64,000 bases of DNA from a phage. Below, piece by piece: positions 16,995 through 63,931 of this stretch (within the stretch, counting starts at the first letter, position 1; each line of letters begins with the position of its first letter). The notes under the pieces are model-generated. The model did no database searches and was not told the origin of the DNA. It saw nothing but the letters and a program-made list of their open reading frames with translations. The stretch lies in assembly GCA_014435945.1 (NCBI GenBank), contig GCA_014435945.1_4088.1, one strand, 5' to 3'. Position numbers and translations under genes: made by a program.

Positions 16995-16995
16995 T

Positions 16996-17265: not shown

Positions 17266-17356
17266 ATGGATTAAACAATGAAGAAGTGTATCATTCTTTG
17301 TTCTAATCACCATCGCATGGTACATTCTGGTAGACTATGTTTGATTGAAAGAAAAA

Positions 17357-17393
17357 AAGGGTTGACTTCAGTCGGCCCTTTTTGCTATAATCA
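17357..17393 (+). promoter_or_regulatory. PeSL-like terminator-promoter cassette
   Basis: gggttgacttcagtcggccctttttgctataat. Confidence 0.7.
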
Positions 17394-17419
17394 TTTCATC
17401 GAAACGAGAGGATGAATAC

Positions 17420-17935: not shown

Positions 17936-17940
17936 AGGAA

Positions 17941-17976
17941 AGGGTTGACTTCGGTCAGCCCTTTTTGCTATAATTA
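17941..17976 (+). promoter_or_regulatory. PeSL-like terminator-promoter cassette
   Basis: agggttgacttcggtcagccctttttgctataat. Confidence 0.7.
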
Positions 17977-18000
17977 TTTTATCGAAACGAGAGGTAATAC

Positions 18001-18213
18001 ATGAAACTATCTTTTATACGTTTAGCAGAATTCTTCGGTACTGATATTATTACTTTACAACAAATTGCAGACAATACTTCATTAAGTACACAAGAAGTAC
18101 TTGACTTAGATGTAATTCAGTGCGATAATACTTCCATTGATTTCAAAGAAGGTCTTGTCGAAAAAGATAAGATTCAAGCTAAGATTAATGGTGCTGGACG
18201 GGTTCAGTACTGA
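18001..18213 (+). CDS. hypothetical protein
   Basis: ORF track; downstream of PeSL-like promoter. Confidence 0.45.
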   Translation: MKLSFIRLAEFFGTDIITLQQIADNTSLSTQEVLDLDVIQCDNTSIDFKEGLVEKDKIQAKINGAGRVQY

Positions 18214-18229
18214 AAAGGAGTATTGAGTA

Positions 18230-19378
18230 ATGTTTGAAAAGTACTATTTAAATGAAGATGGTGAGAAAGTTTATATTATTGAAGAATTATGTACTAAATT
18301 TGAGTACATGAAAATAGAAAATGTTCCTGTAAAAAATAAAAAAACTATCGTTAGAATTGATGAAATTAAACTAAAAGCCATTGAAAAAGAAGATACTATT
18401 TTTGGCTTACAGATATCAAACAGTAATCAATTTTTTGGACTAGAAAAGAATAAAGTTCTGTTTAGATGTGGAACATGCAGCACTTTATGTACAAGTTCAC
18501 TGAAAAGTTATCTTATCTCTGGTGGATGTCAGATATGTGGTAAGAAGAAAAGAAAAGAGTACCAAAACACTATCAAAATATCTGAATCTGATGCATTAAA
18601 AGAAATACAAAAAGAGTGTAAACGCGAATCTATTACATTTATCAAATTTGAAGGTGAATTTACTACAAAATTCAAATCTAAATTTTGGTACAAATGTAAA
18701 AACAACCATACTCGTTTATGTGAGAACATTTATGATTTTCTTAATGGTCATAATTGTGTTGAATGTCGTGATTACAGCTCGGCAAAAAAGATTCGTTTGA
18801 ATATTCTAGTAGTCAAATATGAAATAGATAAAAGAAACGCAGTTTGTAATAATACCTTTATTGGATTTGTGGGAGGTGTTTATGAAACATCAAAAACAAA
18901 ATTACATTTACAGTGTAATGATTGTAATAACCCATTTTATCCATCATATCATAACTATATATCATCTGAGTCTTCATGTCCTACCTGTTCATCAGGTGAG
19001 AGTAAGAATTTAGTTGATATTGATGGTATGTTAGAAGATGATACCATAAAAGAGAAACGCTTCATTGATTGTAAGTTCAAAAAGCCATTACCTTTTGATC
19101 GATTTATTGAAAGTAAACGAATCCTTCTGGAATATGATGGAGTACAACATTTTCAATCAATCAAATTATGGGGCGGCAAAAGTGCTTTTGAACAAAGAAA
19201 GATAAAAGACGCAATAAAAACTGAGTACGCCATCAACAACGGTTACAACTTCATTAGGATTGCATACTATGAAGACCACGTTGCAGTACTGAAATCTTTT
19301 CTAAAACTTATCGAAGATAATCCAGAAAAGCAAATCGTACAGATTTATGGTGAAGTACAAATCTTAGACAAGAAATAA
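18230..19378 (+). CDS. Cys-rich multi-Zn-ribbon protein with C-terminal Vsr/DUF559-like (PD-(D/E)xK) endonuclease motif; candidate homing-type endonuclease
   Basis: Several CxxC pairs; C-terminal EYDGxQH..D..K..A...GY.FIRI pattern. Confidence 0.5.
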   Translation: MFEKYYLNEDGEKVYIIEELCTKFEYMKIENVPVKNKKTIVRIDEIKLKAIEKEDTIFGLQISNSNQFFGLEKNKVLFRCGTCSTLCTSSLKSYLISGGCQICGKKKRKEYQNTIKISESDALKEIQKECKRESITFIKFEGEFTTKFKSKFWYKCKNNHTRLCENIYDFLNGHNCVECRDYSSAKKIRLNILVVKYEIDKRNAVCNNTFIGFVGGVYETSKTKLHLQCNDCNNPFYPSYHNYISSESSCPTCSSGESKNLVDIDGMLEDDTIKEKRFIDCKFKKPLPFDRFIESKRILLEYDGVQHFQSIKLWGGKSAFEQRKIKDAIKTEYAINNGYNFIRIAYYEDHVAVLKSFLKLIEDNPEKQIVQIYGEVQILDKK

Positions 19379-19387
19379 CAATACAAA

Positions 19388-19423
19388 AGGGTTGACTTCG
19401 GTCAGCCCTTTTTGCTATAATTA
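19388..19423 (+). promoter_or_regulatory. PeSL-like terminator-promoter cassette
   Basis: gggttgacttcggtcagccctttttgctataat. Confidence 0.7.
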
Positions 19424-19449
19424 TTTCATCAACTGATGAGGATAACGAA

Positions 19450-20220
19450 ATGACCAGAGAAGCACGTAGCATTCAAATCCAGAAAAACTTCAACTCCATG
19501 ATGGTTGCTCTTGAGTGTTTGCTCGATGATAGCAGTACTGTAAAAAGTATGGTTGTCAGTGGTGCACCTGGTGTTGGTAAGACTTACACCCTGTCACAAC
19601 GCCTCCAGAAAGCTCATGACGCAGCAGAATGGAACGTAGCTACTATCAGTGGTAAGATGACTACTCTTGCTCTGTATGAAGTTCTGTACAAGAATCGTCA
19701 CAGCACTAACGTATTAGTACTGGATGATATGGACAGCATCTTTGATTCAGAAGACGGTATGAACCTGCTCAAAGCAGTACTGGACAGCGGTAAACGTACT
19801 GTGTCTTACATGACTAGCTCTAAGTACTTAACTACCAACGGTATCCCTAACAGCTTTGATTTTAACGGTCGTATCGTATTCATTACTAACAAAGATTTAG
19901 CACTGAATGCTAAAGCTAAAACCAAAATGTCTGCTCACTATGCTGCTCTTATGTCTCGCTCTGTGTATGTTGACTTACAGATCCAGACTAAAAGCGATAT
20001 CATGATTCACATTGAAAACGTAATGAACAAGACCAACATCCTGTCAACTAAAGGTGTTAATAGTAATGGTAGCAAAGCAATCCTGAATTGGATGCTGAAA
20101 CATGAAGATGCACTTCGTGCCCCTTCACTGCGTATGCCTCTGTTGATTTCAGCAGTATACAACAACAACCCGTATGATTGGGAAGAGCAGTGCGAAAATT
20201 TGTTCCTTGAGAAAATTTAA
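19450..20220 (+). CDS. P-loop NTPase (Walker A GAPGVGKT, Walker B VLVLDD)
   Basis: Motifs read directly; codon usage looks less AT-biased than neighbours. Confidence 0.65.
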   Translation: MTREARSIQIQKNFNSMMVALECLLDDSSTVKSMVVSGAPGVGKTYTLSQRLQKAHDAAEWNVATISGKMTTLALYEVLYKNRHSTNVLVLDDMDSIFDSEDGMNLLKAVLDSGKRTVSYMTSSKYLTTNGIPNSFDFNGRIVFITNKDLALNAKAKTKMSAHYAALMSRSVYVDLQIQTKSDIMIHIENVMNKTNILSTKGVNSNGSKAILNWMLKHEDALRAPSLRMPLLISAVYNNNPYDWEEQCENLFLEKI

Positions 20221-50029: not shown

Positions 50030-50225
50030 GACGGATTTTGGGCGTAGTTACCCTGGGTGGATTTTGGACGTAGATATGTCTAGCCCTCCAGAAGTCTGGA
50101 AGTAAAGATGGCTATCCATCTAGACGGCTAAACGGCTAGATTTCTAGATGGCTGTATGGCTAGACGTTTGGACGGCTAAACGGCTAGATGGTTACACGTC
50201 TGGATGTATAGACGGCTAAATCAAA
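50030..50225. repeat. iteron-like direct repeats: GACGGCTAAACGGCTAGAT twice (50123-50141, 50171-50189), partial copy at 50211, and GGATTTTGG(G/A)CGTAG twice
   Basis: Read directly. Confidence 0.6.
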
Positions 50226-50916
50226 ATTTTTATTTTGTTTTTTCCAATAGTTCCCCTACCGCGTGGGGATAGTTTCCCCGCAGTATCTGGAGTTAGATTT
50301 TTCTGAATCTGGAATCATTATCCCCGTTTTAGCCTGGTATGTCAACCGCCTGGATGAATATTTTTAAAAAATAATCTAGTACTGAATTTTGGGCGTAACT
50401 ATGCACCCGGTGGGCTTGAGTCTTTCTCGACTTGATGGAACTATTATACAGTACTGGAAAAATAAAGCAATACCCTGGAAGCAAAAAAGTTTTAATTAAT
50501 TTGCTTGCTATCCTGGGCCGGACTATGGTACTATATTTCAGTACTGAGAAAGTGCGTTTACCTGCTAGGGTGCGGGAGTGTATCCTTTTTAAATTTACTG
50601 AATTTTGGGCGTAATTCCGCACCCCCAGGGGTATCCGCTTTCTCGCGTCTATGTAGTAATTATACGCTTTTTCGGTGCTGAGTCAATAGCTAAAAACAAA
50701 ATAATTGAAAATAATTTAACGCGTTTAAACGGCCCGTAAAGCCCTGGTTAGCTGGTGGCGGTGCAAATGTATAGCTTAGGTGTATTAATGCGTTAGAATG
50801 CGATTGAGGACGTTTTACGGGGTATAGTACTGATTCAGTACTGAAAGATTGTTCTCCCTGGATTGTTCCAGTACTCCTATATAGAAAGAAAACTATTTTA
50901 AAAGTATTTGTAGAAA

Positions 50917-52369: not shown

Positions 52370-52639
52370 GCAGTTTACAAATCTTTACAATTGCCAGTAT
52401 TGACTTATTTTGTCAGTACTGGCATAATGTATTCATTGGCAGATAAGCCGTAGCCCATAGGGTGCGGAAGTGTATCTATAGAAAAAGTAGTTTAGTACAG
52501 TTACAATTGTGCACCCGGTGGGTTAGCTGTTGTCATGGGGTATATTATACCAGTACTGGATAGTGCTGTCAATACTTTTTTTACTATTCAGTACTGAAAA
52601 ACTATTTGATAAAAAGTACTTGCAAACTATGTTTAAAGG

Positions 52640-52735
52640 CGTATAATGTTTTACATCAGGACGGGGAACGAAATAAGTAACTTCCCGTTAAGTAGCCCAG
52701 GAGTAAGGCACACGAAAAACTCCCCTGATAAAATA
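52640..52735 (+). ncRNA. candidate structured RNA element between tandem promoters (copy 1)
   Basis: About 90-nt segment nearly identical to 63797-63885; compensatory change in ACGGGG/CCCCGT stem. Confidence 0.35.
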
Positions 52736-52797
52736 GTTTGACAATTGTTTTTAAAAGCGTATAATACTTACATAAACTACTGAATGAGGGTTACAAA

Positions 52798-53409
52798 ATG
52801 AAAACTATCACTACTACTACTTATGTTATGGATTTTTCTGAATTGAACGCAGAACAAAAAACGTCAGCTATCGAACTAGTTCGGGAACGTGAAAAAAACT
52901 CAAACGACGATTATTTTTCTGAAAGTGAAATTGAACACTATAAAGAAACAGTATTGCCGGAATATGGCATTAATGACGCTGAAATACAATTCAGTGGTTT
53001 TTGGTCCCAGGGTGACGGTGCATCAATCAGTACTGACCACGTTGACGCAGTGAAGTTTTTACGCAAGGTAAGAGCATTAACTAAGTATCGCTCAATCCGT
53101 CACCTGCTGAATGAAGATGATTTGGCGATGAGTGTAAAGCGTTCGCACTCCCACTACTCGCATGAGAATACTGTAAGCGGGTACATTGAATCGGCTTACA
53201 CTGATTTAACCGCAAAACAAGAAACGTTAGTTAATGAGCTTGAGGAACTACTCACTGACACTATTCGTGAATTATCCCGCAAGTTGTACCGTGATTTAGA
53301 GAATGCATATGAGGATCAATTCACTACTGAAAACATTACGGCACTGATTGAGGGTAACGAATATCAATTCAATGTTATTGATGGCGTAGTAGAATCAATC
53401 GAATATTAA
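52798..53409 (+). CDS. hypothetical acidic protein (203 aa)
   Basis: ORF track; SD GAGGG. Confidence 0.5.
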   Translation: MKTITTTTYVMDFSELNAEQKTSAIELVREREKNSNDDYFSESEIEHYKETVLPEYGINDAEIQFSGFWSQGDGASISTDHVDAVKFLRKVRALTKYRSIRHLLNEDDLAMSVKRSHSHYSHENTVSGYIESAYTDLTAKQETLVNELEELLTDTIRELSRKLYRDLENAYEDQFTTENITALIEGNEYQFNVIDGVVESIEY

Positions 53410-53502
53410 TTTAAAAAGTACTTGCAAACTAAGTTTAAAGGCGTATAATACTTTATATCGAGGCGGGGAGTGGTTCCCCGCTCATACTAAAAGGGTAACA
53501 AA

Positions 53503-53769
53503 ATGAAAACTTTAAATATCACAACTGCACATCAATTGGTTCGGGATGCGATGGATCATGTGCAAGATTTCTTCCCTGATGTAAGTGTAGTGACTTATGA
53601 AAAAGGTACTTGGACTTATTCAACAATTAACGGTTATGAGCCTGATTTTGATGATCTGGAAGAAATGGAATTTAATTTTGATCTGCTGAATGATGCCGCC
53701 CGTGAAGTGGGAAACGATGTTCAATACATTGATGGAGTAGTCGCACCTGATGCCGTAAAAGGATTATAA
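53503..53769 (+). CDS. hypothetical acidic protein
   Basis: ORF track; promoter unit upstream. Confidence 0.5.
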   Translation: MKTLNITTAHQLVRDAMDHVQDFFPDVSVVTYEKGTWTYSTINGYEPDFDDLEEMEFNFDLLNDAAREVGNDVQYIDGVVAPDAVKGL

Positions 53770-53853
53770 AAGTACTTGCAAACTAAGTTTAAAGGCGTAT
53801 AATACTTTATATCGAGGCGGGGAGTGGTTCCCCGCTCAAACGAGGATTAAAAA

Positions 53854-54093
53854 ATGGCTAGTACTAAAACTTACAACGGGCACAAAAACAAAACTCATTG
53901 GAATGTTTCCTTATGGATTAATAACGGTGAGTCATTGTATCGGCTTGCTCAAAGTTGCATCGCACAAAGTAGAACTAAAGATATTGCTGCGGAATGTATG
54001 TACCGCAGATTAAAAGCCAACGGTACTACTACAACGCCGGACGGATTCAAGTATAGCACTACGGCGATCCGTGCTGCAATGGTTGGAATGTAA
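53854..54093 (+). CDS. hypothetical protein; paralog of 51462..51701
   Basis: Shared motifs; identical promoter unit. Confidence 0.55.
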   Translation: MASTKTYNGHKNKTHWNVSLWINNGESLYRLAQSCIAQSRTKDIAAECMYRRLKANGTTTTPDGFKYSTTAIRAAMVGM

Positions 54094-54151
54094 TATTCAG
54101 TACTGTAACAATGGCGGGGAATGGTTCCCGCCTTTATTGAGGGTTTATCTA

Positions 54152-54412
54152 ATGAGTAAAGTAATTAACTATACAGTACTAAGCAAGTCATTATCTATTA
54201 GCCAGTGCACCGATGGTTATTGGTTTTATGATGAAACGCGTGGAATGAATTTAGCTATGCGTGCAAAAACTGCTGAGGCGGCGTATCTTGAGGCACTGGA
54301 ATACTACCAGGAACGTTTAACGGAAGTAGAAGAAGATTATAAAAGCCTCAAAGCGAAAGTAGATCATTTCGTCGGTCAATTCATCGAGGAAGACGCCGAC
54401 AAACAATATTGA
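54152..54412 (+). CDS. hypothetical protein
   Basis: Internal ATG with GAGGG SD. Confidence 0.45.
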   Translation: MSKVINYTVLSKSLSISQCTDGYWFYDETRGMNLAMRAKTAEAAYLEALEYYQERLTEVEEDYKSLKAKVDHFVGQFIEEDADKQY

Positions 54413-54498
54413 AAAAGTACTTGCAATTAGTTTTCAGTACTGTATAATGGTTTACATCAAAGGGAGAAATGGTTCTCCCTGGTAATGAGGAAAATAAA

Positions 54499-54720
54499 AT
54501 GGCTAATATCACTACTCTTTCCCAACTGGAAGCACTGGTTAAATCTATGCGGGAACATGCCGACAAAATCGGCGTACAAGATCCAGCCGTTTGCTTCTGC
54601 GACGAATTGAATGATGATACCCTGGTAATAGCAGAAGTCCAGGACGTTTCTAACTATTCCTCGCGTTACACTGGCGGCGTAGCAAATAAAGGTGACTTCT
54701 GTTTATACCTTACAAAATAA
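54499..54720 (+). CDS. hypothetical protein
   Basis: ATG after SD GAGGA. Confidence 0.5.
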   Translation: MANITTLSQLEALVKSMREHADKIGVQDPAVCFCDELNDDTLVIAEVQDVSNYSSRYTGGVANKGDFCLYLTK

Positions 54721-54963
54721 CAACGCGGGGAGATAATAACTCCCCGTTACTTTTTCAGTACTGAATCATTTAATAGACGGATCTCGGCACCCGGTGGGTT
54801 AGTGACTGTTTCGTCTTGATGTAGTAATTATGCCAGTACTGGATGCACTTGTCAACAATTATTTTCCAAATACTTTTTATTAAAATACTTGCTATTAGTT
54901 TTTAAACGCGTATAATGTTTTGCATAGGGGGAGCGGTTCCCCTGGTAACTAAGGAATAAGAAA

Positions 54964-55200
54964 ATGGTCGAACAAATCAAATCAACGTCTTCGAATGTAA
55001 CGGGAACGGTAGCACACTTTACTAGTGATGAATCGCGGGGCGTTCCCTATTGTGCTGTACATGTAAACACTGAGGGTAACTACTGGTTTACGGTTTACGG
55101 ATCATATTCATTTGGACGGCCAGGGCATCAAAAAATTCTGGATAAAGTACAACCAACGGGTAAAAATATCACTGCCGAAATGTTTTATAAAAAATCATAA
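54964..55200 (+). CDS. hypothetical protein
   Basis: ORF track. Confidence 0.5.
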   Translation: MVEQIKSTSSNVTGTVAHFTSDESRGVPYCAVHVNTEGNYWFTVYGSYSFGRPGHQKILDKVQPTGKNITAEMFYKKS

Positions 55201-55284
55201 AGTACTTGCAATTAGTTTTTAGTACTGTATAATATTTTACATCGCAAGGGGAAACGGTTTCCCCTGGTAACTAAGGATAATCAA

Positions 55285-55584
55285 ATGAAAGTAGCAATCA
55301 TCGCCCTGGCTTTATCTGTTTCCTCTTTCGCTGTTAATGCGTCGTTAGATGTACCTGGTGATAAATTCATTCAGTGCACCGTAGCAATGACAGATGAAAG
55401 TACTGGCGAGATTGTATTAAAGGATTTAGAGATCCAGCCGGAAGCATTTAAAAACGGCCCGTTCCATGAAGAAGACGAAAACGGTAGCACAACAATTTAT
55501 TATGATGCCAGTACTAAACGTGGTTCTGTCACTGTAATGGATACGGAGAAAGTAACTCACACCGGAGTAATTAACTGTTTATAA
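55285..55584 (+). CDS. secreted protein (signal peptide)
   Basis: N-terminus MKVAIIALALSVSSFAVNA. Confidence 0.55.
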   Translation: MKVAIIALALSVSSFAVNASLDVPGDKFIQCTVAMTDESTGEIVLKDLEIQPEAFKNGPFHEEDENGSTTIYYDASTKRGSVTVMDTEKVTHTGVINCL

Positions 55585-55666
55585 TAGTTTGACTATGTAT
55601 TACAGTACTGTATAATAGATACATAAGGGGCGAATAGTTTGCCCCTGGCATAAAGGGGAAAACATT

Positions 55667-55897
55667 ATGACAGCACGAATTGTTTTACTTAACGCTGGAA
55701 GTACTACACAACTCCTTAACGCCGTGCATTATGATATTGAAACGAGCGTTAATCTTATCAGTACTGTAGTACTATTGGACACTGGAAAGGTCGCCAATGA
55801 TAAAGCGATTGCAGGTATACTAACTGATCTCAAGCCTGGTAGCAGTACGCCAATAACGTTAAATGGCAAAGTGTTTAATATTTTACTTACTGATTAA
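55667..55897 (+). CDS. hypothetical protein
   Basis: ORF track. Confidence 0.45.
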   Translation: MTARIVLLNAGSTTQLLNAVHYDIETSVNLISTVVLLDTGKVANDKAIAGILTDLKPGSSTPITLNGKVFNILLTD

Positions 55898-55903
55898 GTA
55901 CAT

Positions 55904-55926
55904 AGCCCACCTGGTGGGCTTTTTTG
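55904..55926 (+). terminator. intrinsic terminator AGCCCAC-ctg-GTGGGCT plus T5
   Basis: Inverted repeat and T-run. Confidence 0.65.
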
Positions 55927-55994
55927 TTTTTGTAGTATCGTAGTACTGAGATACTTTAAAAATAGTTTTAAAAAAGTAGTTGACATTACCACAA

Positions 55995-56085
55995 AAAGGC
56001 GTAGAATGTATTACATCAAGACGGGGAGCACTAAGTAGACCGCCAGTAAGTCGAACGAAAAACTGGACACGTCGAGAAAACTTTG
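55995..56085 (+). ncRNA. candidate structured RNA element, divergent copy
   Basis: Shares acgggga...aagtag.cc..cagtaag..acgaaaaact with 52640 and 63797. Confidence 0.25.
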
Positions 56086-56130
56086 ATACACTAATAAACG
56101 TAAACTAAACTTTAATTGAGGATTTATAAA

Positions 56131-56613
56131 ATGGCTAATGTAAAATCATTCATCAAAGCACTGGTAGCAAATGAAACTAACGTCGCGGCAGAGATCCTGG
56201 CTGAACTGGATAACGATACCATGAAAGCGGTACGCAATAATTTTAACATCGCGTACAGTACTGCGAAAGAACTACAAGCAAATAAAGCGGCAGAAATTGA
56301 AGCGGCAAAGGCGGCCCGTGAAGCAGAACTACAAGCAACAATCGAAAGTATTCAGGCGGCAGTAGTTGGATTGGATCTGGAAGTAGTTACAGAGATGGCA
56401 CAAAAAGCCCTGGCGGTTAAGTATGGGGAAGACAAGCCAGAAGTAAAAGCCAAAAAATGGATTCAGGAACGCGTAGCGGTAGTACTGGACAACGGGGAAG
56501 AATATCTGATTCCGGTGCGTGGTAACTGCATTGCGGTAGTACTGGATGCGATTAACTCCAGTGGTATGACTCGCGAGGAATGGATCGAAGCTCATCGCAA
56601 AGTTGAAGCATAA
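56131..56613 (+). CDS. hypothetical Ala/Glu-rich protein
   Basis: ATG after SD GAGGA; track start 56116 is TTG. Confidence 0.5.
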   Translation: MANVKSFIKALVANETNVAAEILAELDNDTMKAVRNNFNIAYSTAKELQANKAAEIEAAKAAREAELQATIESIQAAVVGLDLEVVTEMAQKALAVKYGEDKPEVKAKKWIQERVAVVLDNGEEYLIPVRGNCIAVVLDAINSSGMTREEWIEAHRKVEA

Positions 56614-56634
56614 CAATTAAAGTACTGAATCACT

Positions 56635-56662
56635 AGCCCACCTTAAACGGTGGGCTTTTTTG
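56635..56662 (+). terminator. intrinsic terminator AGCCCACC..GGTGGGCT plus T6
   Basis: Inverted repeat and T-run. Confidence 0.65.
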
Positions 56663-56898
56663 TGTTTATCGTTTACCAGCTCCACATCACCGCCTAGAAA
56701 CGATTCTAACGCATTAAACTGATTATCTGATGCATTGCCCTAGCTGGTGGCGTTAAGGTCGTTGTAATGCGATTGAGAGCGTTTAAAGTATTTTGCAAAA
56801 AGTAATAAAAAGTACTTGCACGATTAAGAGATTAGCGTATAATGTTTTACATCGAGAGGGGGAAACGGTTCTCCTTCCAAATCAAAGGAATAAAAACA

Positions 56899-57126
56899 AT
56901 GGCTATTATCATTACTCGCGTATCTGGTACTACTGGCAACGAACAAGTAGTTGCAGTCATTACCAACAAGGAAGGTGCGGAATTGCAAAATGCAATGAAT
57001 ACCTGGGCCGTTAATGAGTTCGGTCAGTGGGCAAGTGTAGCATACATTGAAACCTATCAAGTGCCGTCGATTAGTTTAACTGATTTGGGCGTTGAGCGTA
57101 TCCTTTGCCTGGATGAATTAAATTAA
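56899..57126 (+). CDS. hypothetical protein
   Basis: ATG after SD AAGGAA. Confidence 0.5.
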   Translation: MAIIITRVSGTTGNEQVVAVITNKEGAELQNAMNTWAVNEFGQWASVAYIETYQVPSISLTDLGVERILCLDELN

Positions 57127-57212
57127 AAAAAGTACTTGCAAAGTAAATCGAATAAAGTATAATACATTACATCAAGGGGAGAAATGGTTCTCCCCACTAC
57201 AAGGAAACTAAA

Positions 57213-57356
57213 ATGAAAACTTGTCAATGTGGTCAGAAATCTATTACGGGTTTAAAGCGGGGCGTTGCTCTTTGCCAGTACCATTATAATTTACAAGTAT
57301 GGGGTAAAGAATGGGCCGACCAGGTGGAAGCAGCAAAGAAAGCAAAAAGTAAGTAA
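57213..57356 (+). CDS. putative 47-aa Cys-containing basic protein (MKTCQCGQKS...KAKSK)
   Basis: Read manually; promoter, hairpin and SD upstream. Confidence 0.4.
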   Translation: MKTCQCGQKSITGLKRGVALCQYHYNLQVWGKEWADQVEAAKKAKSK

Positions 57357-57435
57357 AAATATTATCACAGTACTATTGACATAGTTTGATAGTACTGGCA
57401 TAATAGATTTTATCAAGACAACTGAGGAAAATAAA

Positions 57436-57648
57436 ATGGCTATCATCACTAAAATCAAAGTTAACAAATCACTGGTTAAGCTGGAAGAAGTGAAAGAAGG
57501 TTATAAAGTATCTTGGTGCGGCATGTATCGGATATTCACTGATATTGATGACGCAATCAATTATTACAGCGACACGGTTAAAAACTTTGTTCGTGCTGAT
57601 GTGGTTATGGCAGTGGCAACGCACAAAGCAGCGAAAGAAAGTAAGTAA
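57436..57648 (+). CDS. hypothetical protein
   Basis: ORF track; same 3' end and downstream promoter as 57213..57356. Confidence 0.5.
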   Translation: MAIITKIKVNKSLVKLEEVKEGYKVSWCGMYRIFTDIDDAINYYSDTVKNFVRADVVMAVATHKAAKESK

Positions 57649-57737
57649 AAATATTATCACAGTACTATTGACATAGTTTGATAGTACTGGCATAATAGAT
57701 TTTATCAAGACAACATATTAATTTAAGGAATACAAAA

Positions 57738-58061
57738 ATGGCTAAAACTATCATTAACACCGTTTCCCTGGCTGCAATCCGTGCAATCAATGTTGACGGT
57801 AAACGTTGGACTGATTCATATGGCAATACTTATCATTCTTGTCATGTAAGCGTTGAACTGGATAACGGTTTGAATGATCTGGCGGTTGAATCATTTACTT
57901 ATGGCTATGAAGATGCATATCAACAAACGGCGTTATCTCTCTTAAAGGAATCAGTAGACGGGCTTAATACTGATGAAACCTCCCTTACTCGTGTGTGCAA
58001 TGATCTTAATATCCCGTTGCATTGTACTGTACAGAATGTTAAACGCAAAAAAGATCTTTAA
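57738..58061 (+). CDS. hypothetical protein
   Basis: ORF track. Confidence 0.5.
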   Translation: MAKTIINTVSLAAIRAINVDGKRWTDSYGNTYHSCHVSVELDNGLNDLAVESFTYGYEDAYQQTALSLLKESVDGLNTDETSLTRVCNDLNIPLHCTVQNVKRKKDL

Positions 58062-58141
58062 TTAGCTTTACTTTATGCAGATACTTTGATATAGTGTCTG
58101 CATAGGGGAAAGAAATTAAATTAACTTAAGAGGATCGTATA

Positions 58142-58411
58142 ATGAAAAATATCAGTACTTTAATCGATGCAGGTACTCATGTTCGTCGGTCTATGGTTGC
58201 AACCAGTACTACAAAACAAGTAGCGAGCGGTTATCTTGTATTTGTGCACGATGGTAAACTCCTGGAACGTTCAATCAATTTTGATGTTAAAAACAATTGC
58301 CGTTTTATTATCTTTAAGCGTGAGCAATATAAAATTGATTTACCAGCAAAGCCCATTAGTGGGGCGTACAACGTGCAATCATTGTTTGAACGTCAACCAT
58401 ACACCTATTAA
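58142..58411 (+). CDS. hypothetical protein
   Basis: ORF track; SD GAGGA. Confidence 0.5.
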   Translation: MKNISTLIDAGTHVRRSMVATSTTKQVASGYLVFVHDGKLLERSINFDVKNNCRFIIFKREQYKIDLPAKPISGAYNVQSLFERQPYTY

Positions 58412-58462
58412 TCAAAACATCGTTAGCGGTCGATTCAGGCCGCTTATATTGGGGATTATACC

Positions 58463-58735
58463 ATGAACGTTAATCAAGTACTGAATGAGATCGAAAGCAT
58501 CATTAAACCGATGAAGCGTACTGATGCTATGTTAACACCGGAAGAATGCCGCCTTTATGAGCGTTACAGCGTCGAACAAGTCCAGGCAATGGCTATGGCT
58601 ACCCCAGCCGTTAAACCGCCTGAGAATGCGTTACAGGACGTTACAGGGGATTATATCATCAATCCAGTACTAGGGAAGATGGCTGCAATCACCGAAGATC
58701 AACAAGACTACTTAAGCCAGTACTTAAAAGGTTAA
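58463..58735 (+). CDS. hypothetical protein
   Basis: ORF track. Confidence 0.5.
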   Translation: MNVNQVLNEIESIIKPMKRTDAMLTPEECRLYERYSVEQVQAMAMATPAVKPPENALQDVTGDYIINPVLGKMAAITEDQQDYLSQYLKG

Positions 58736-58740
58736 TTAAT

Positions 58741-58950
58741 ATGCTTACTGTACAGGATAAGATCGACATCTTAAAGGTTAATATGTATGTGATTGATGCC
58801 GTACCTGGTAAAGTATTTGCATACGATGACACTACTGTAAGCGATTTCTACTATAGCCAGGCCGTGGGGGATCTTTCTGTACAGTCGGTTATTGAAAACG
58901 TAGTTAATGCAGCGTATGAGCATTTACTTTCAAATAGTACTTGCAATTAG
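58741..58950 (+). CDS. hypothetical protein
   Basis: ORF track. Confidence 0.45.
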   Translation: MLTVQDKIDILKVNMYVIDAVPGKVFAYDDTTVSDFYYSQAVGDLSVQSVIENVVNAAYEHLLSNSTCN

Positions 58951-59019
58951 TTTTTAAACGCGTATAATGTTTTACATGAAGGGGAGAAATGATTCTCCCC
59001 ACTAATTAAGGAATATGAA

Positions 59020-59166
59020 ATGAAAGCATCAAAAAAGAGTACTAACAAGAAAGCACGTTCAACCTTAGATGGGGTATTCCCTTTACGTTTTGTTGATGAA
59101 GTAGTTTCCTACCCGCCGGGCCTTACTCCTGAGATGGTAGAAAGTTTGCGTAAATCTAAAAAATAG
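59020..59166 (+). CDS. putative 48-aa basic protein (MKASKKSTNKKARS...)
   Basis: Read manually; promoter, hairpin and SD AAGGAA upstream. Confidence 0.4.
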   Translation: MKASKKSTNKKARSTLDGVFPLRFVDEVVSYPPGLTPEMVESLRKSKK

Positions 59167-59248
59167 TACTTGCAATTAGTTTTTAGTACTGTATAATAGT
59201 TTACATGAAGGGGAAAACGTTCCCCTTACACCTAACGAGGAAAGTATA

Positions 59249-59500
59249 ATGGAAACAATTTTAATCAAAGACACTGCTACTACTGTAACTTATGATAATG
59301 ATTGCATTATCCCAGGGACTGAGTACGGCGAACGTGTACCCGTTCAAGTAGAGATTGATACCACATACATCGACAAGGCTGACCAGTGTATCACTATTGT
59401 AATTGGTGAATATCGTTTTCTACCAGAAGAGATCCAAAAATGGCAGAATATGATTGACCGTGCGAAATTAGTCGCACAAAGTTTAAAATACAAAGTTTAA
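59249..59500 (+). CDS. hypothetical protein
   Basis: ORF track. Confidence 0.5.
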   Translation: METILIKDTATTVTYDNDCIIPGTEYGERVPVQVEIDTTYIDKADQCITIVIGEYRFLPEEIQKWQNMIDRAKLVAQSLKYKV

Positions 59501-59586
59501 AATAATACTTGCAATTAGTTTTTAAACGCGTATAATGTTTTACATGAAGGGGAGAAATGATTCTCCCCAATAACAGGAGAAACAAA

Positions 59587-59739
59587 ATGAAACAATACAA
59601 CGCTCGGTTTGATGTTACTATCGGTAACGGCAAAGGTCAATTCTCTTTCAGTACTCGCAAAAGTTATACAGAAAACTTCCTGCGTAATTGTGCACTGACC
59701 GCCGCACAAATTAAACATTACTTTCAGGCTAAAAAATGA
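59587..59739 (+). CDS. putative 50-aa protein
   Basis: ATG after SD AGGAGA. Confidence 0.4.
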   Translation: MKQYNARFDVTIGNGKGQFSFSTRKSYTENFLRNCALTAAQIKHYFQAKK

Positions 59740-59825
59740 AATCATTAGCTTATTACAGTTCGGCCCTGGTCGGTGCATTGATCGCGGCATTGTTAGTAAC
59801 CTATCTATTCTTTATGGTGATTTAA
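59736..59825 (+). CDS. putative 29-aa single-TM peptide (MKSLAYYSSALVGALIAALLVTYLFFMVI)
   Basis: Read manually; ATGA overlap with upstream stop. Confidence 0.3.
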   Translation: MKSLAYYSSALVGALIAALLVTYLFFMVI

Positions 59826-59969
59826 ATGAATCCAACAGGCTTAAATTATAAAAGTTGTTCGGCGTTTACGAAAGCAAATAAAGCGAATGCACGTAAAGCG
59901 AAAGTACAGGAATACATCAAGCAAGGCATGACGCGAAAGGCGGCGATTCTAAAAGCTAAAAATAAATGA
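59826..59969 (+). CDS. putative 47-aa basic protein
   Basis: Read manually; directly follows previous stop. Confidence 0.35.
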   Translation: MNPTGLNYKSCSAFTKANKANARKAKVQEYIKQGMTRKAAILKAKNK

Positions 59970-59974
59970 AAAAA

Positions 59975-60010
59975 GTGGTTGACTCCGGTCAGCCATTTTG
60001 CTATTATATA
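59975..60010 (+). promoter_or_regulatory. PeSL-like terminator-promoter cassette
   Basis: gtggttgactccggtcagccattttgctattat. Confidence 0.6.
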
Positions 60011-60179
60011 TTCATTGAGAGATAGCTCACTAGCCCACAGGGTGCATAAGTGTATCTATTATATAAGTATTGAGTACTGAAAACTATTTTTAAAAAGTAC
60101 TTGCAAACTATCTCAATAAGCGTATAATGTTTTACATCGCAAGGGGAAATGGTTTCCCCTGGTAATAAGGAAACGAATC

Positions 60180-60521
60180 ATGACTATCTCAATTGCTCAA
60201 TCTAACTTTGAAAATGAAATCATCGCCCAGGCACTGCGTTTAAATGATGGTCGGGCCGAAATTAATTACGGTTTCAATTCAGGCGGTTGTGAAAAATATC
60301 AGTACTTTGTAACGGCTGATGGCGGTGTCCTGGGGATCAATACAGTTATTGTAAACATTCAGAAAATTAATTTCAATGATCCAGAAGATAGCCAGTTTTA
60401 CATCACGGGCGTGAACGTGAACTATGAGGATGATTATCTAACTGATGATCACACTGGCGAGAAGTTAGAAAGTGCATACGGTGAAGATGATTATCAGTCC
60501 GGTCCAGAAGATTTCGAATAA
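60180..60521 (+). CDS. hypothetical acidic protein
   Basis: ORF track. Confidence 0.5.
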   Translation: MTISIAQSNFENEIIAQALRLNDGRAEINYGFNSGGCEKYQYFVTADGGVLGINTVIVNIQKINFNDPEDSQFYITGVNVNYEDDYLTDDHTGEKLESAYGEDDYQSGPEDFE

Positions 60522-60616
60522 TATAAAAAATAGTTTGACAATAGATTATAGTACTGTATAATAGTTTACATCAAGGGGAGAGATGATTCTCCCCACTAAC
60601 AGAGAGAGAAAACAAA

Positions 60617-60799
60617 ATGGCTGAATTAATCGCTCGGAATACAATTGAAGGCATTGAAGATGTAACGTTGTCCTATGATTCAGATAAAAAAGTTTATGTT
60701 GTTCGTTATGGTTTGATTGGTGTTAACGTTGATTATATTGATGAAGCCTTTGAAAAATACTTTGAATTTATTAATATGGCTTATAATGATTATCGTTAA
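60617..60799 (+). CDS. hypothetical protein
   Basis: ORF track. Confidence 0.5.
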   Translation: MAELIARNTIEGIEDVTLSYDSDKKVYVVRYGLIGVNVDYIDEAFEKYFEFINMAYNDYR

Positions 60800-60889
60800 A
60801 AAATAGTTTGACAATAGTTTTAAGTACTGTATAATAGTTTTCATCAAGGGGAGAAAAACTTCTCCCCACTAACAGAGAGAGAAAGCAAA

Positions 60890-61102
60890 ATGGCTAATAT
60901 CTGCACTGTACTGAAAAATGCAAAACAAGTTTTATTTTCTGATCACGATCATTTAAACAAGGATATTACGGGCGTTCGGAATATCAAAGATGTAAAAAGT
61001 GTTATGGGTATCTATTGCAATATGAAACGTGTTGGTACGTTCGGCGACAAAGTACTATACCAGGCAGGGGATTATAACTTTACATTAACCATTATCAATT
61101 AA
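60890..61102 (+). CDS. hypothetical protein
   Basis: ORF track. Confidence 0.5.
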   Translation: MANICTVLKNAKQVLFSDHDHLNKDITGVRNIKDVKSVMGIYCNMKRVGTFGDKVLYQAGDYNFTLTIIN

Positions 61103-61192
61103 AATATATTACCAGTACTATTGACAACGTTTGATAGTACTGTATAATAAGTTTTATAAACAGTAGTTAACTTAACCTAAGAGAGAAACAAA

Positions 61193-61336
61193 ATGATCGC
61201 ACTGGATTCATTCATCGACGCAGTACTGGCAAAAACTGGCGAGGATCTGACCGCAGAACAATACGCGATGATCGAGCAATGTCAGCAAAACGGTAAATCG
61301 GTGAAAGATACTGTTAAGATTATCCGCAAGATGTAA
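61193..61336 (+). CDS. putative 47-aa protein (MIALDSFIDAVLAK...)
   Basis: Read manually; promoter at 61120-61150; SD GAGAGA; terminator follows. Confidence 0.4.
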   Translation: MIALDSFIDAVLAKTGEDLTAEQYAMIEQCQQNGKSVKDTVKIIRKM

Positions 61337-61342
61337 GATTAT

Positions 61343-61370
61343 AGCCCACTGGTTAACGCTGGTGGGCTTT
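61343..61370 (+). terminator. probable terminator hairpin AGCCCAC..GTGGGCT with short T tail
   Basis: Inverted repeat. Confidence 0.45.
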
Positions 61371-61441
61371 AATCATTTACCCTATACAATGCCAGTACTA
61401 AACCGTTTATCTCGTTAGAATGCGTTACAGGACGTTTAACA

Positions 61442-61639
61442 ATGATTAGCATGAAATCAGTACAAAAACAAATAGAAACATTATCAAAAATTAAACGTAA
61501 ACAATACTCCTTAGAATATACAATCAATGGTAACTATCATCTAATGAAAGAAAATAATTTTATAGTCATTGATGAATCATTGCAAATTATTAGTATAGTA
61601 CTGAAAGCATTAATCAATGACAGAAAAAAATTAAAATAA
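61442..61639 (+). CDS. hypothetical protein
   Basis: ORF track. Confidence 0.4.
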   Translation: MISMKSVQKQIETLSKIKRKQYSLEYTINGNYHLMKENNFIVIDESLQIISIVLKALINDRKKLK

Positions 61640-61968
61640 TCTATTGACAATATCCTCCAGTACTGGCATAATACTTACATCAAGACGAGAACGTCACTAA
61701 CCCATAGGGTGCACAAATGTAACTATATAATATCGATCAATAAATGATCAAAAAAGTACTGGATCAATTTAGCATAAGGAGTATAATTCTGATCAATTCT
61801 TGATCAAAGGCAATAAACGCAGTTGAATTTATATAGACAATACAAAGGCGTTACTATCCGTGGTAATGCTGGTGGATATGTAGTATCATATGGTTTGAAT
61901 AAGATAAACACTAGTAGTATTATTGTAGCATTACAGTACTATAGTATTTTTATAATGAGGTTAAAATA

Positions 61969-62226
61969 ATGGCTGTAGGATTTGCGAAGGACGGGGCCGA
62001 ACAAGACGAGATTAACGCAGTGATTCAGGCCGCTGTAAACCACGCTAGAAAGCAAATTAACGCACAAAGAGAATCACTGGTACATTGCCTCGACTGCGGC
62101 GATAAAATTCCTGAGAATCGACGCCAGGCCGTTATAGGGTGCATGTATTGTATTACTTGCCAGGAGGATCATGATAGTACTTTTAAAAGAGATCCGCGTA
62201 ATTGTTGGCATAGATCTATGAGATAA
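61969..62226 (+). CDS. TraR/DksA-family C4 zinc-finger protein
   Basis: CLDCGDKIPENRRQAVIGCMYCITCQ matches the CxxC-N17-CxxC DksA/TraR signature. Confidence 0.7.
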   Translation: MAVGFAKDGAEQDEINAVIQAAVNHARKQINAQRESLVHCLDCGDKIPENRRQAVIGCMYCITCQEDHDSTFKRDPRNCWHRSMR

Positions 62227-62290
62227 AAAGTAATTGACAGTACTGAAAGATAGTGTATAATGTTTTATATCTTAACTGAGGATAGAAATC

Positions 62291-62647
62291 ATGGGAATAC
62301 AACATATCACGCGTACTACTGACAATGGCGAGATCACTGGTTATCAAGTACAGGGCAAAGTAGCACAATTGCAGTACTGGTTTGTTAAACGTGGAATCAT
62401 TGCACCGGATCTTGATTATGACCGTGTAGCGTTTATTGATTCTCTTTATGTTGATCCTGATAGTCGGGGCAATGGTGAAGGTAACGAATTAATGAATGCC
62501 TTTATCGATGCCGCCGATGATTCAGATTGTATCATCTTAGAATGCGATACGGGAGAAGATAACGCCTTTAATCTTAAAGAATGGTACGAAGGTTTCGGAT
62601 TCGAGGTATTGATAGATAGTGAATATCCTATCATGATTTTATCATAG
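62291..62647 (+). CDS. possible small GNAT-like acetyltransferase
   Basis: Weak motif-A-like segment VDPDSRGNGEGNELMNAF. Confidence 0.35.
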   Translation: MGIQHITRTTDNGEITGYQVQGKVAQLQYWFVKRGIIAPDLDYDRVAFIDSLYVDPDSRGNGEGNELMNAFIDAADDSDCIILECDTGEDNAFNLKEWYEGFGFEVLIDSEYPIMILS

Positions 62648-62725
62648 TACTTGCATTTAGTTTTCAGTACTGTTATAGTACTTGCATCAAGGGGAAACAT
62701 CTTCCCCTACTAAGAGGAAATAAAA

Positions 62726-62914
62726 ATGGAAAACTTATCAAGTATTTTAGTACAAGATGATTTCGGTAATCCTGGAAGTGCTATCATTGTTCGGGGTAAT
62801 AAAGCAACGTTTGTTATTGCTGGTGGACCCGTACAGCGTAGCATTAAAAATAATGCTGTTACCATTAATAATGTACGCTATCGCTTAGATAAAGAATTAA
62901 TTCATAAACTGTAA
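62726..62914 (+). CDS. hypothetical protein
   Basis: ORF track. Confidence 0.5.
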   Translation: MENLSSILVQDDFGNPGSAIIVRGNKATFVIAGGPVQRSIKNNAVTINNVRYRLDKELIHKL

Positions 62915-62999
62915 AAAAGTACTGGACAATAGATTATAGTACTGTATAATAAGTTACATGAAGGGGAGAAATGATTCTCCCCACTAAGAGGAAAGAAAA

Positions 63000-63212
63000 A
63001 TGCAAGGTCAACTAATCGTTCGTAAATGGTCTGATACTAACGCTAAACCGTGGGATGTACAATACATCGCCCCCAATGGTGAATCACGTTATCAGCCAGG
63101 TGTAACGCATAGTACTGAGCAATTCGCCGCCGCTCACCGTGAACGCCTGTTACAATCAATGCAGCAAGGTTTCGGTGAAAAATTCATTCAGGATCATTGG
63201 CTGAAAGATTAA
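63000..63212 (+). CDS. hypothetical protein
   Basis: ORF track. Confidence 0.5.
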   Translation: MQGQLIVRKWSDTNAKPWDVQYIAPNGESRYQPGVTHSTEQFAAAHRERLLQSMQQGFGEKFIQDHWLKD

Positions 63213-63298
63213 AAAGTACTTGCACTGTACTGAATAAAGTGTATAATGTTTTATATCGGAAGGGGAATAGTTCCCCTCCGAACAAAGAGGAAAGTATA

Positions 63299-63472
63299 AT
63301 GGTCCAGGTAGAATTAACAGTACTGAAAGATCTGTTTTATCGGATTGGTACTACTGGCGAATATCCGAAGGGTGATAATGCAAAACTTTACGTATCACTC
63401 GACTTATGGCAACGCGAACAATTAGCAACGGCCTGGCGTAAAGGCAAAGCAGATAGCGAGGTGAAAGCATGA
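63299..63472 (+). CDS. hypothetical 57-aa protein
   Basis: ATG after SD AGAGGAAAG. Confidence 0.45.
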   Translation: MVQVELTVLKDLFYRIGTTGEYPKGDNAKLYVSLDLWQREQLATAWRKGKADSEVKA

Positions 63473-63618
63473 AAGAATTCTTATTTGAAGTAGTGTTTCA
63501 AGGTGTCGGTAGTAACCAACTGATTCGCTCAAGTGGTTATAATGTTAACCAGGCATGGAATAACATTAAACAAATGTACCCGAACGCTATCACATATCGC
63601 AACCCGAAAGAAGTTTAA
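63469..63618 (+). CDS. putative 49-aa protein
   Basis: Read manually; ATGA overlap with upstream stop. Confidence 0.35.
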   Translation: MKEFLFEVVFQGVGSNQLIRSSGYNVNQAWNNIKQMYPNAITYRNPKEV

Positions 63619-63634
63619 AAATAATTGAAAAAGG

Positions 63635-63668
63635 GATTGACTCCGGTCAGTCCCTTTGCTATTATATA
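63635..63668 (+). promoter_or_regulatory. PeSL-like terminator-promoter cassette
   Basis: gggattgactccggtcagtccctttgctattat. Confidence 0.6.
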
Positions 63669-63796
63669 CGCATAGAAACAAATCAGCCCACAGGGTGCAT
63701 AAATGTATCTATTGTTTGCTGGTGGCTAGTACTGAAAACTATTTTTAAAAAGTACTTGCATTGTACTTAGAATAAAGTATAATGTTTTACATCAGG

Positions 63797-63885
63797 ACGG
63801 GGAACGAAACAAGTAACCCCGTTAAGTAGTCCAGGAGTAAGACATACGAAAAACTCCCCTGATAAAATAGTTTGACAATAGAAAG
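63797..63885 (+). ncRNA. candidate structured RNA element between tandem promoters (copy 2)
   Basis: Near-identical to 52640-52735. Confidence 0.35.
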
Positions 63886-63931
63886 TAAAAGAGTATAATA
63901 CTTACATCAACCACTGATAAGGAAACATAAA

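Follow-up and report, generated by a model that had tools for sequence, protein, structure and literature searches.

Two of the described systems that come close to the locus treated here may be introduced first. In phage HK022, the put RNA is about 70 nt long, is located directly 3′ of an early sigma70 promoter of the phage and needs no phage protein (PMC9378689); it is made of two long stem-loops, of which stem I forms a triplex, and in putL a -10-like sequence is thought to cause a sigma-dependent pause (PMC9378689). In T4-type phages, the so-called PeSL cassettes (Arbiol 2010; Comeau 2014) comprise a strong sigma70 promoter, an AT-rich upstream tract, a stem-loop formed by a G-run and a C-run, a Shine-Dalgarno sequence (SD) and a small open reading frame (ORF); they are repeated through regions of dispensable genes and have been implicated in modular shuffling, and their stem-loops are simple hairpins said to be terminators or attenuators (PMC2839356). 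The element described here occurs three times (copies A, C and B, all on the + strand) in a stretch of 64 kb from contig GCA_014435945.1_4088.1, hereafter the window, to which all positions refer. The window has 97% identity to the Asteriusvirus jumbo coliphages (121Q/PBECO4 group) and is assigned to the left terminal-repeat region of such a phage. Each of the three copies begins about 2 nt past the predicted start site of a strong sigma70 promoter (P1), and copies A and B are followed by a second one (P2). An earlier reading of these sequences, here called the original prediction, had proposed a small RNA (sRNA) or a regulatory leader; as judged from the sequence, the element is a transcribed, structured and non-coding 5′ leader module rather than a proven sRNA, because no terminator follows it before the next promoter and three relatives lack a second promoter.

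Structure of the Element

The two nearly identical segments first reported are indeed present, with exact shared blocks: the 21-mer ACATCAGGACGGGGAACGAAA (at 52653 and 63789) and the 34-mer ACGAAAAACTCCCCTGATAAAATAGTTTGACAAT (at 52712 and 63846) each occur exactly twice in the window, on the + strand, where shuffled sequences are expected to contain 0. A third, more divergent version was recognized as a true relative by a covariance model built from the conserved core and then run on the window, which gave exactly three matches, all on the + strand, at 52.0–54.5 bits and E ~1e-11, the one at 56030-56069 scoring 52.0 bits; no further copies are present in the 64 kb, the next-best match having an E value of 0.57. 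The limits first given to the two segments were about right, except that 52640-52735 takes in the -10 box of P1 and 63797-63885 begins 8 nt inside copy B.

The conserved part of the element is an H-type pseudoknot of about 35 nt, analyzed in an alignment of 30 distinct cores, many of which are related sequences. It is composed of helix S1 (6 bp), loop L1 (1–2 nt), helix S2 (4–5 bp), loop L2 ((A)UAA, 3–4 nt) and loop L3 (GAAAAA, 6 nt). S2 encloses a loop of 16–17 nt and is 96% paired over the 30 cores; four of its five pairs have changed on both sides (CG/GC/UA and UA/AU/UG), its arms being CCUG/CAGG, CCAG/CUGG, CUUG/CAAG or CCUUG/CAAGG, and GGAG/CUCC in copies A and B. S1 forms when the upstream linker GUAG-N-C pairs with G-N-C-(N)-UAC inside the S2 loop (94% paired); its middle N:N pair is A-U in 21 cores, C-G in 4, U-A in 4 and unpaired in 1, with changes in at least 4–5 separate lineages, i.e., copy A, copy B, a T7-like phage, a Munch-like phage and the pair of relatives L235/L239. 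The lone exception, a C.A in phage EmilieFrey, looks intermediate. The loops UAA and GAAAAA are invariant, and the S2 helix is free in sequence. The whole structure is 94.8% paired, as compared with 19–38% when the 3′ partners are slid by 1–3 columns, and none of 500 shuffles (0/500) reaches the observed covariation score.

The pseudoknot is enclosed by a closing helix, in which the first nucleotides of the transcript pair with those directly 3′ of S2, and which differs in each lineage (AUCAGG/CCUGAU, GACGG/CCGUC, GGUCAG/CUGACC, GCGACG/CGUUGC, UCGGUUA/UAAUCGA, ACGAA/UUCGU); the mean duplex energy is -10.9 kcal/mol for cognate and -7.2 kcal/mol for non-cognate combinations (permutation p < 5e-5). 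An accessory hairpin (HP1) separates the closing helix from the pseudoknot in copies A and B, as well as in the T7-like phages and the Munch group. The G.U pairs of HP1, S1 and S2 suit the transcribed strand only. Consensus folding had been suggested as a check, and the covariation across copies and relatives supports an RNA fold, which we regard as very probably real. Some properties call for caution: the helices are weak singly (S1 from +0.4 to -2.8 kcal/mol, S2 from -2.0 to -6.4 kcal/mol), and the support for S1 comes from one covarying pair, with the A-U pair 8-26 of this helix disrupted in 9 of the 30 cores. No covariation is found within the copies of the A/B type (type 1). Folding of single sequences is a poor guide, with z values of -1.9, -3.7 and -0.15 for copies A, B and C, respectively.

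The fold originally put forward was a stem, ACGGGG/CCCCGT, with a compensatory change between the two copies. This stem is present in copies A and B, where it corresponds to HP1, but the conserved part is the pseudoknot downstream, the hairpin being optional and missing in copy C. Pairing in the stem is kept as proposed; the change, however, is one-sided, since the 5′ arm is the same in both copies and the 3′ arms differ by a 2-nt indel and a C->U replacement (G-C -> G.U), which are structure-neutral. Two-sided compensation is seen only on comparing copy C and outside relatives. The statement that no ORF fits was correct: the only one, of 31 codons, begins in the -10 box of copy A and has no counterpart on that strand in copy B, so that a small peptide was discarded as the product. 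A helix between the 5′ end and the transcribed P2 -35 box, possible in copy C, phage LTH01 and T3-like phages, does not hold for Munch and Hallingskeid and was rejected too.

Duplication of the whole region, including flanking ORFs, had been named as the finding that would undermine the proposal. Copies A and B cannot be aligned outside the promoter hexamers and the transcribed element, and the downstream proteins belong to different PHROGs (phrog_5162 and phrog_14947, respectively); local or whole-region duplication is ruled out by these unrelated flanks and proteins.

Distribution in Phages

The element of about 85 nt, together with the second promoter, is found at 90–100% identity in 45 phage records. 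Besides Asteriusvirus, the type-1 carriers include Vequintavirinae (A73, A7_1) and Stephanstirmvirinae/Justusliebigvirus (outra, muut, EmilieFrey); these rV5-like and Justusliebigvirus phages, of about 140 kb, have no relationship to the jumbo phage, and in them as well the genes 3′ of the element are unrelated. Among Asteriusvirus, Vequintavirinae and Justusliebigvirus the type-1 element is >90% identical and its flanks are unalignable. In muut (L227, 301-389), the 5′ G-run and the 3′ C-run of the element are longer than in the sister phage outra by one G and one C, respectively: this is either a matched pair backing an alternative long 5′–3′ helix, or both are homopolymer sequencing errors.

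The core of copy C, CTAAGTAGACCGCCAGTAAGTCGAACGAAAAACTGG, is matched in jumbo phages of Salmonella, Klebsiella and Erwinia (Munch, fENko-Kae01, Hallingskeid), in which the downstream gene is orthologous to the one after copy C (phrog_27871/20181), and also in the rV5-like phage LTH01 and in the T7-like Yersinia phage phiA1122 (553-587). In T7/T3-like podoviruses, pattern scans and BLAST identified the core once per genome in 507 phage records, including T7, T3, Kayfunavirus and Klebsiella KP32-like phages, with hosts that also comprise Yersinia, Salmonella, Enterobacter, Citrobacter, Serratia and Cronobacter. In the podoviruses the core lies between the early promoters A1 and A2, ending 2 nt 5′ of the A2 -35 box, with A1 and A2 placed as on the T7 map. 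The T7 sequence in PMC11863960 agrees with this placement, and the A1–A3 fragment of T7, which contains the core, has been termed “internalisation signal” (PMC11863960).

In the window copies and in the relatives, the orientation is always sense and the position always promoter-proximal, and the next -35 box follows the core after 2 to about 100 nt. The tandem promoters on which the original prediction had relied do flank copies A and B (P1 and P2), but they are not a defining feature: in the relatives L454, L235 and L239 the order is promoter, pseudoknot and gene, without a consensus-grade second promoter. In a comparison of 40 distinct T7-like sequences, conservation reaches 90% or more in almost all columns of the core, but drops to values as low as ~40–50% in the spacer and -10 box of A2 and in the initial transcript of A1. 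This gradient, from core to promoter spacers, and the compensatory changes are the signature of selection on the fold. Four mutually unrelated groups of virulent phages of enterobacteria have retained this core or passed it among themselves.

No copy is found in 5,426 complete Escherichia coli genomes, and a host or prophage origin was rejected on this basis; a scan of the genome collection gave, among the matches listed, only chance matches and two short T7-like contaminant contigs. The search pattern was also matched by contigs of metagenome-assembled genomes of Nitrososphaeraceae (L299, L317, L348, L492, L493 and others), with the sequence CAAGTAG(T/C)CCTGCAGTAAG(A/G)CTGAGGAAAAAGCTG, in which the N:N positions covary as well; this archaeal sequence probably represents a hairpin of some conserved gene or RNA and has no relation to the element.

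Searches for Known RNA Families

The Rfam search that had been suggested did not identify the element: no family matches the whole window at the gathering score or the element (52640-52760) at E <= 10, and the search at E <= 10, which also covered the T7-like leader, gave only a boxA-driven chance match to Ysr197. ARAGORN predicts 0 genes for transfer RNA or transfer-messenger RNA (tmRNA) in the window. As would be expected of a stand-alone sRNA, the element has its own promoter; no terminator-like site that would define a 3′ end was found between the element and P2 or the next ORF, and no U-tract occurs 3′ of the element. No boxA lies near the window copies, the nine window matches with <=2 mismatches to GCTCTTTAACAA-like sequences being at chance level and elsewhere, nor beside the myovirus copies generally; boxA accompanies only the podovirus relatives. 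Likenesses spotted by eye to the pistol ribozyme linker (GUUAAAUAG), the tmRNA resume-codon region, the 16S leader (GUCGCAAGACGAAAAA) and ToxI are taken as chance, because no model matches and the matching letters are not the conserved ones.

Literature searches on the T7 A1/A2 leader RNA, on early pseudoknots of T7-like phages and on Asteriusvirus or Vequintavirinae promoters returned no description of the element, older T7 papers being thinly covered, so that an early mention is possible; the T7 sequence appears in the literature only as a cloned “internalisation signal” or promoter fragment. The family and the fold appear to be new, although structured RNA in phage early leaders as such has precedents (put, nut).

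Genomic Setting

In vB_Ec-M-J the region corresponding to the window is annotated as a direct terminal repeat of 21.5 kb, inside which the three elements, all directed inward, are located 3.7, 6.7 and 14.2 kb from the left physical end. The segment 50900-64000 of the window has 16 or more strong sigma70 promoters that are paralogous and of the form AAAAAGTACTTGCAA-N17-TATAAT-gTTTTACATC; downstream of most of them come a short hairpin (G-run/C-run), an SD and a small ORF. In three cassettes of this array (50.9–64 kb) the element stands in place of the plain hairpin. The layout of the array and of the element-bearing promoters is that of PeSL cassettes (promoter, AT-rich upstream tract, G/C stem-loop, SD and start codon, small ORFs). 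Downstream of copy C there is at best a weak promoter-like sequence. The coordinates of the features are collected in Table 1.

Table 1. Features of the three element copies and of their promoters and terminators (positions in the window; paired segments are given as DNA).
Feature	Position and sequence	Strand	Remarks
Promoter P1 of copy A	52620..52647, TTGCAA-16-TATAAT	+	-10 at 52642-52647; predicted start ~52653; promoter families D1/D7
Copy A, element (whole transcribed module)	52653..52729	+	RNAalifold yields the same three helices
Copy A, closing helix	ATCAGG 52655-52660 with CCTGAT 52724-52729	+	supported by cognate-duplex energies
Copy A, accessory hairpin HP1	52661-52688	+	ACGGGGA / TTCCCGT, one G.U pair
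Copy A, pseudoknot core	52689..52723	+	covariance match 52687-52726, 52.2 bits, E 1.7e-11
Copy A, S1	GTAGCC 52692-52697 with GGC-A-CAC 52707-52713	+	
Copy A, S2	GGAG 52700-52703 with CTCC 52720-52723	+	
Copy A, loops	L2 TAA 52704-52706; L3 GAAAAA 52714-52719	+	
Promoter P2 of copy A	52738..52765, TTGACA-16-TATAAT	+	12/12; drives ORF 52798-53409 (phrog_5162, function unknown)
Intrinsic terminator just 5′ of copy C	55904..55920, AGCCCACCTGGTGGGCT + T-run	+	
Promoter P1 of copy C	55980..56007, TTGACA-16-TAGAAT	+	predicted start ~56013
Copy C, element	56013..56087	+	minimal form without HP1
Copy C, outer closing pairs	ATCAAG 56015-56020 with TTTGAT 56082-56087	+	
Copy C, inner closing pairs	GACG 56020-56023 with CGTC 56070-56073	+	
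Copy C, junction	56024-56031, GGGAGCAC	+	
Copy C, pseudoknot core	56032..56066	+	covariance match 56030-56069, 52.0 bits; matches phiA1122 553-587 and jumbo phages
Copy C, S1	GTAGAC 56035-56040 with GTC-G-AAC 56050-56056	+	
Copy C, S2 and L3	CCAG 56043-56046 with CTGG 56063-56066; GAAAAA 56057-56062	+	
Intrinsic terminator 3′ of copy C unit	56635..56656	+	ends the one-gene unit headed by copy C (ORF 56131-56613, phrog_27871)
Promoter P1 of copy B	63756..63783, TTGCAT-16-TATAAT	+	-10 at 63778-63783; predicted start ~63789; promoter family D1
Copy B, element	63789..63863	+	single-sequence folding z = -3.7
Copy B, closing helix	ATCAGG 63791-63796 with CCTGAT 63858-63863	+	
Copy B, HP1	63797-63822	+	ACGGGG / CCCCGT
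Copy B, pseudoknot core	63823..63857	+	covariance match 63821-63860, 54.5 bits, E 4e-12
Copy B, S1	GTAGTC 63826-63831 with GAC-A-TAC 63841-63847	+	
Copy B, S2 and L3	GGAG 63834-63837 with CTCC 63854-63857; GAAAAA 63848-63853	+	
Promoter P2 of copy B	63872..63899, TTGACA-16-TATAAT	+	drives ORF from 63932 (phrog_14947 in relative L119)

Several other repeated sequences were noticed in the window. A Chi site, GCTGGTGG, is located at 63717-63724, just 5′ of the promoter of copy B, and is kept in CMSTMSU and EJP2; in the Munch group (L007 ~3590; L111) a Chi site lies within the spacer of the promoter 3′ of the element. In the right-hand terminal repeat, the Chi orientation would face RecBCD entering from the right end. 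Two converging consensus promoters, 52400-52428 (+) and 52572-52544 (-), surround a non-coding piece of ~120 bp with inverted copies of the motif AGCCCAYNGGGTGC, which recurs 5′ of copy B (63686-63699), at 50567-50586 and in Salmonella phage Munch (L007 3190-3250); the piece at 52400-52600 may give a further conserved small transcript or serve as a terminator in both directions. A composite hairpin-promoter, AAAGGGTTGACTTCGGTCAGCCCTTTTTGCTATAAT, with the -35 box within the stem and the -10 box right after it, is present in 13 copies (6436-19454, 59953-60018 and 63611-63676; families D14/D15) and looks like a terminator and a promoter combined. At 50108-50219, in mostly non-coding sequence and about 1.2 kb inward of the predicted left genome end (which is inferred from vB_Ec-M-J), runs a series of 8-bp periodic repeats (variants ACGGCTAA, ATGGCTAG and ACGTCTGG; family D17). 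On the minus strand, between 23850 and 43925, a conserved block comprising SD, ATG and N-terminal coding sequence (families D2/D4/D6; reverse complement AGGAGGGAAATATGTTACCTTTTGCAAGAATGGTTAAGTACGG) occurs in 14 copies at a spacing of about 1.2 kb, i.e., a tandem array of paralogous genes.

Possible Functions

The pattern of conservation would fit recognition of shape and loops by a host component of Enterobacterales that all carriers meet. The pseudoknot is most likely a docking site for a conserved host component, because the loops are invariant, the helices are weak alone and the carriers share almost no genes; our preferred proposal, a tentative one, is that such a docking site acts in cis on early transcription. 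According to this proposal, the immediate-early transcripts made by the host RNA polymerase would begin with the element as a structured 5′ leader, and the nascent pseudoknot would act on its own polymerase, the preferred target being the transcription elongation complex, with an effect like that of put or of rrn boxB-boxA, i.e., less pausing and less Rho-dependent loss in the untranslated leader. Intrinsic terminators would stay functional; indeed, any effect should be on pausing or Rho, because the units end at intrinsic terminators. More speculatively, the promoter-like downstream -10 sequence could hold sigma-retaining polymerases until the RNA has folded. Protection of the 5′ end against 5′-end-dependent decay would be a further effect of the closing helix, and the plain G/C hairpins at the sister promoters may have it too.

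In favor of an action in cis, the element opens the first transcription units, in the DNA that enters first; in the podoviruses its untranslated leader also contains an rrn-type boxA, which in L235 and L239 is only 54–60 nt away; and put is a precedent of a promoter-proximal nascent RNA that modifies the polymerase unaided. Other observations speak against it. The copies in the window and in other myoviruses have no boxA, the core model has no match in the HK022 genome (best E 1.4) and transcripts from the second promoter do not carry the element. The unit of copy C consists of one gene bounded by strong intrinsic terminators, and T7 early transcripts end at TE; because of these two facts, put-like read-through of intrinsic terminators is unlikely. 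Moreover, T7 deletions of A2/A3 grow in laboratory hosts, for which the element would thus probably be dispensable.

Alternatively, promoter and element together may be a tiny autonomous RNA gene, yielding a stable RNA that acts in trans as a decoy or aptamer for a host protein. Cleavage in the A/U-rich spacer after the closing helix or, in T7, cleavage by RNase III would free a compact RNA of 65–85 nt, which would titrate or inhibit this protein, e.g., a nuclease of a defense system or a factor of RNA decay, already in the first seconds after infection. Invariant loops around a compact fold suit this reading, and so do the strong promoters, the three copies per terminal repeat, the horizontal movement between unrelated phages, before unrelated genes and amid small early ORFs, and the probable dispensability mentioned above; the second promoter would be the downstream gene's own, hence usual but not universal. 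Nonetheless, we consider a trans-acting RNA rather doubtful, as no terminator was found to set its 3′ end, the tandem repeats or partner toxin gene of type III antitoxins are missing and no Rfam family matches. It is unlikely that the element is only a 5′ stabilizer, an elaborate version of the G/C hairpin of the sister promoters guarding the mRNA from RppH- and RNase E-dependent decay: it does have the same position as the short hairpins at >=16 paralogous promoters, with the closing helix of copies A and B starting about 2 nt past the predicted start, and type-1 S2 and closing helix reuse the local hairpin sequence GGAG...CTCCCC, but the invariant unpaired UAA, GAAAAA and GUAG beside variable helices would be left unexplained. 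In T7, in addition, the leader is cut off the first mRNA by RNase III and so could not stabilize that mRNA.

The dimensions of helices and of the A-rich L3 would be those of a riboswitch-like aptamer with preQ1-I-type layout and size, perhaps sensing a host metabolite; the helices seem too weak for stability without a partner, and an alternative long helix of type 1 (G-run with C-run), which the extra G and C of muut match, competes with HP1 and S2. Such a function is nevertheless improbable, since no riboswitch model matches at E <= 10, an expression platform is lacking (no terminator, no SD sequestration) and the downstream genes are mutually unrelated. In podoviruses the block adjoins the A2 -35 box, GAAAAACAGG lies about where a proximal UP subsite would be and some records annotate a “promoter” beneath the block, as if it were a DNA-level feature, i.e., the UP element or upstream region of the second promoter; this is highly improbable, given that the next -35 box is anywhere from 2 to ~100 nt away, that three members have no second promoter, that DNA recognition does not predict two covarying helices with G.U pairs and that conservation is higher in the block than in the A2 spacer and -10 box. 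Equally little credence can be given to a functionless passenger of a recombination cassette that spread recently and underwent gene conversion, as PeSL might: although the region is an array of promoter and stem-loop cassettes, as in T4-type phages, and element and P2 move together between phage groups, the compensatory changes and the conservation of the core above that of the spacers show selection on the fold, and the core is retained in podoviruses as well as in jumbo myoviruses, whose leaders cannot otherwise be aligned.

The pseudoknot can also be seen, with considerable reserve, as an autonomous and horizontally mobile RNA “gene”, an aptamer that would be the first RNA of infection in T7/T3-like, rV5-like, phAPEC8-like and Rak2/121Q-like phages; it may be a trans inhibitor or decoy of a defense or RNA-decay protein, a metabolite sensor, or a factor-independent polymerase modifier unrelated to put. 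If true, this would be a new class of phage RNA device, found in the most-studied 100 nt of T7. Both T7 and T3 serve as reference systems, and the A1 promoter with its first ~100 transcribed nt is among the most used templates in transcription biochemistry; yet this region has turned out to contain, as its most conserved block, a covarying pseudoknot and not merely the upstream part of A2. The position at the start of the first transcripts in four phage groups points to a shared host dependence in the first seconds of infection, and knowledge of the partner of the element would open one of three fields, i.e., early transcription and genome entry, evasion of RNA decay, or RNA-based counter-defense. 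Moreover, RNA databases would gain a family, and a gap that recurs without annotation in hundreds of phage genomes would be accounted for.

Comparison with Known Systems

Like put, the element is short (65–85 nt), runs from about +3 and is usually followed by a promoter-like -10 sequence; its A-rich loop probably lies in a helix groove. [quoted passage not shown] That the element is put itself is ruled out by the different fold and by the missing match in HK022.

The element resembles the rrn leader and lambda nut in that an untranslated leader contains, near boxA, an RNA hairpin whose loop is A-rich. In L235 and L239 the pseudoknot is 54–60 nt 5′ of a boxA, GCTCTTTAA(C/A)AA, where the rrn leader has boxB, and many T7-like phages have an rrn-type boxA 150–410 nt further along this leader; tandem promoters are also a feature of the E. 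coli rrnB operon. The window and myovirus copies differ in having no boxA, the rrnB leader does not match the core model, and the loop is not a GNRA-like pentaloop such as that of lambda boxB. As a separate observation, the A1 initial transcript of T3-like phages (GTCAACGGGACAACGGCC ... CTGAGA; L015 ~1960-2020) resembles the rrnB P1 transcript (ACTGACACGGAACAACGGCA ... CTGAGA; L264 170-250), and the podovirus early leader may imitate, or derive from, the leader of the rRNA operon.

Among small pseudoknots, preQ1-I aptamers are H-type, of ~34–35 nt, with a short L1 and an A-rich L3 before the 3′ strand of S2. The element shares this topology and size, an architectural resemblance only: the conserved nucleotides are different, and its units have neither a queuosine-related gene context nor an expression platform. 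Type III antitoxins (ToxI) are short (~35 nt), A-rich pseudoknot RNAs of phage–host conflict, of which phages carry mimics. The element is likewise short, A-rich and pseudoknot-forming, but its copies are single and 3–8 kb apart instead of tandem repeats of 34–45 nt, no Rfam family matches and no toxin domain was found in the ORFs downstream of it.

The likeness to PeSL cassettes concerns the setting, since the window contains at least 16 such cassettes at 50.9–64 kb, three of them with the element. Unlike the PeSL stem-loops, the element is a pseudoknot with conserved loops and without a U-tract; it is present also in podoviruses that lack the cassette array, and it is conserved far past the needs of recombination homology. 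The occurrence of the element and P2 before unrelated PHROGs in unrelated phages is, on the other hand, consistent with a PeSL-type shuffling.

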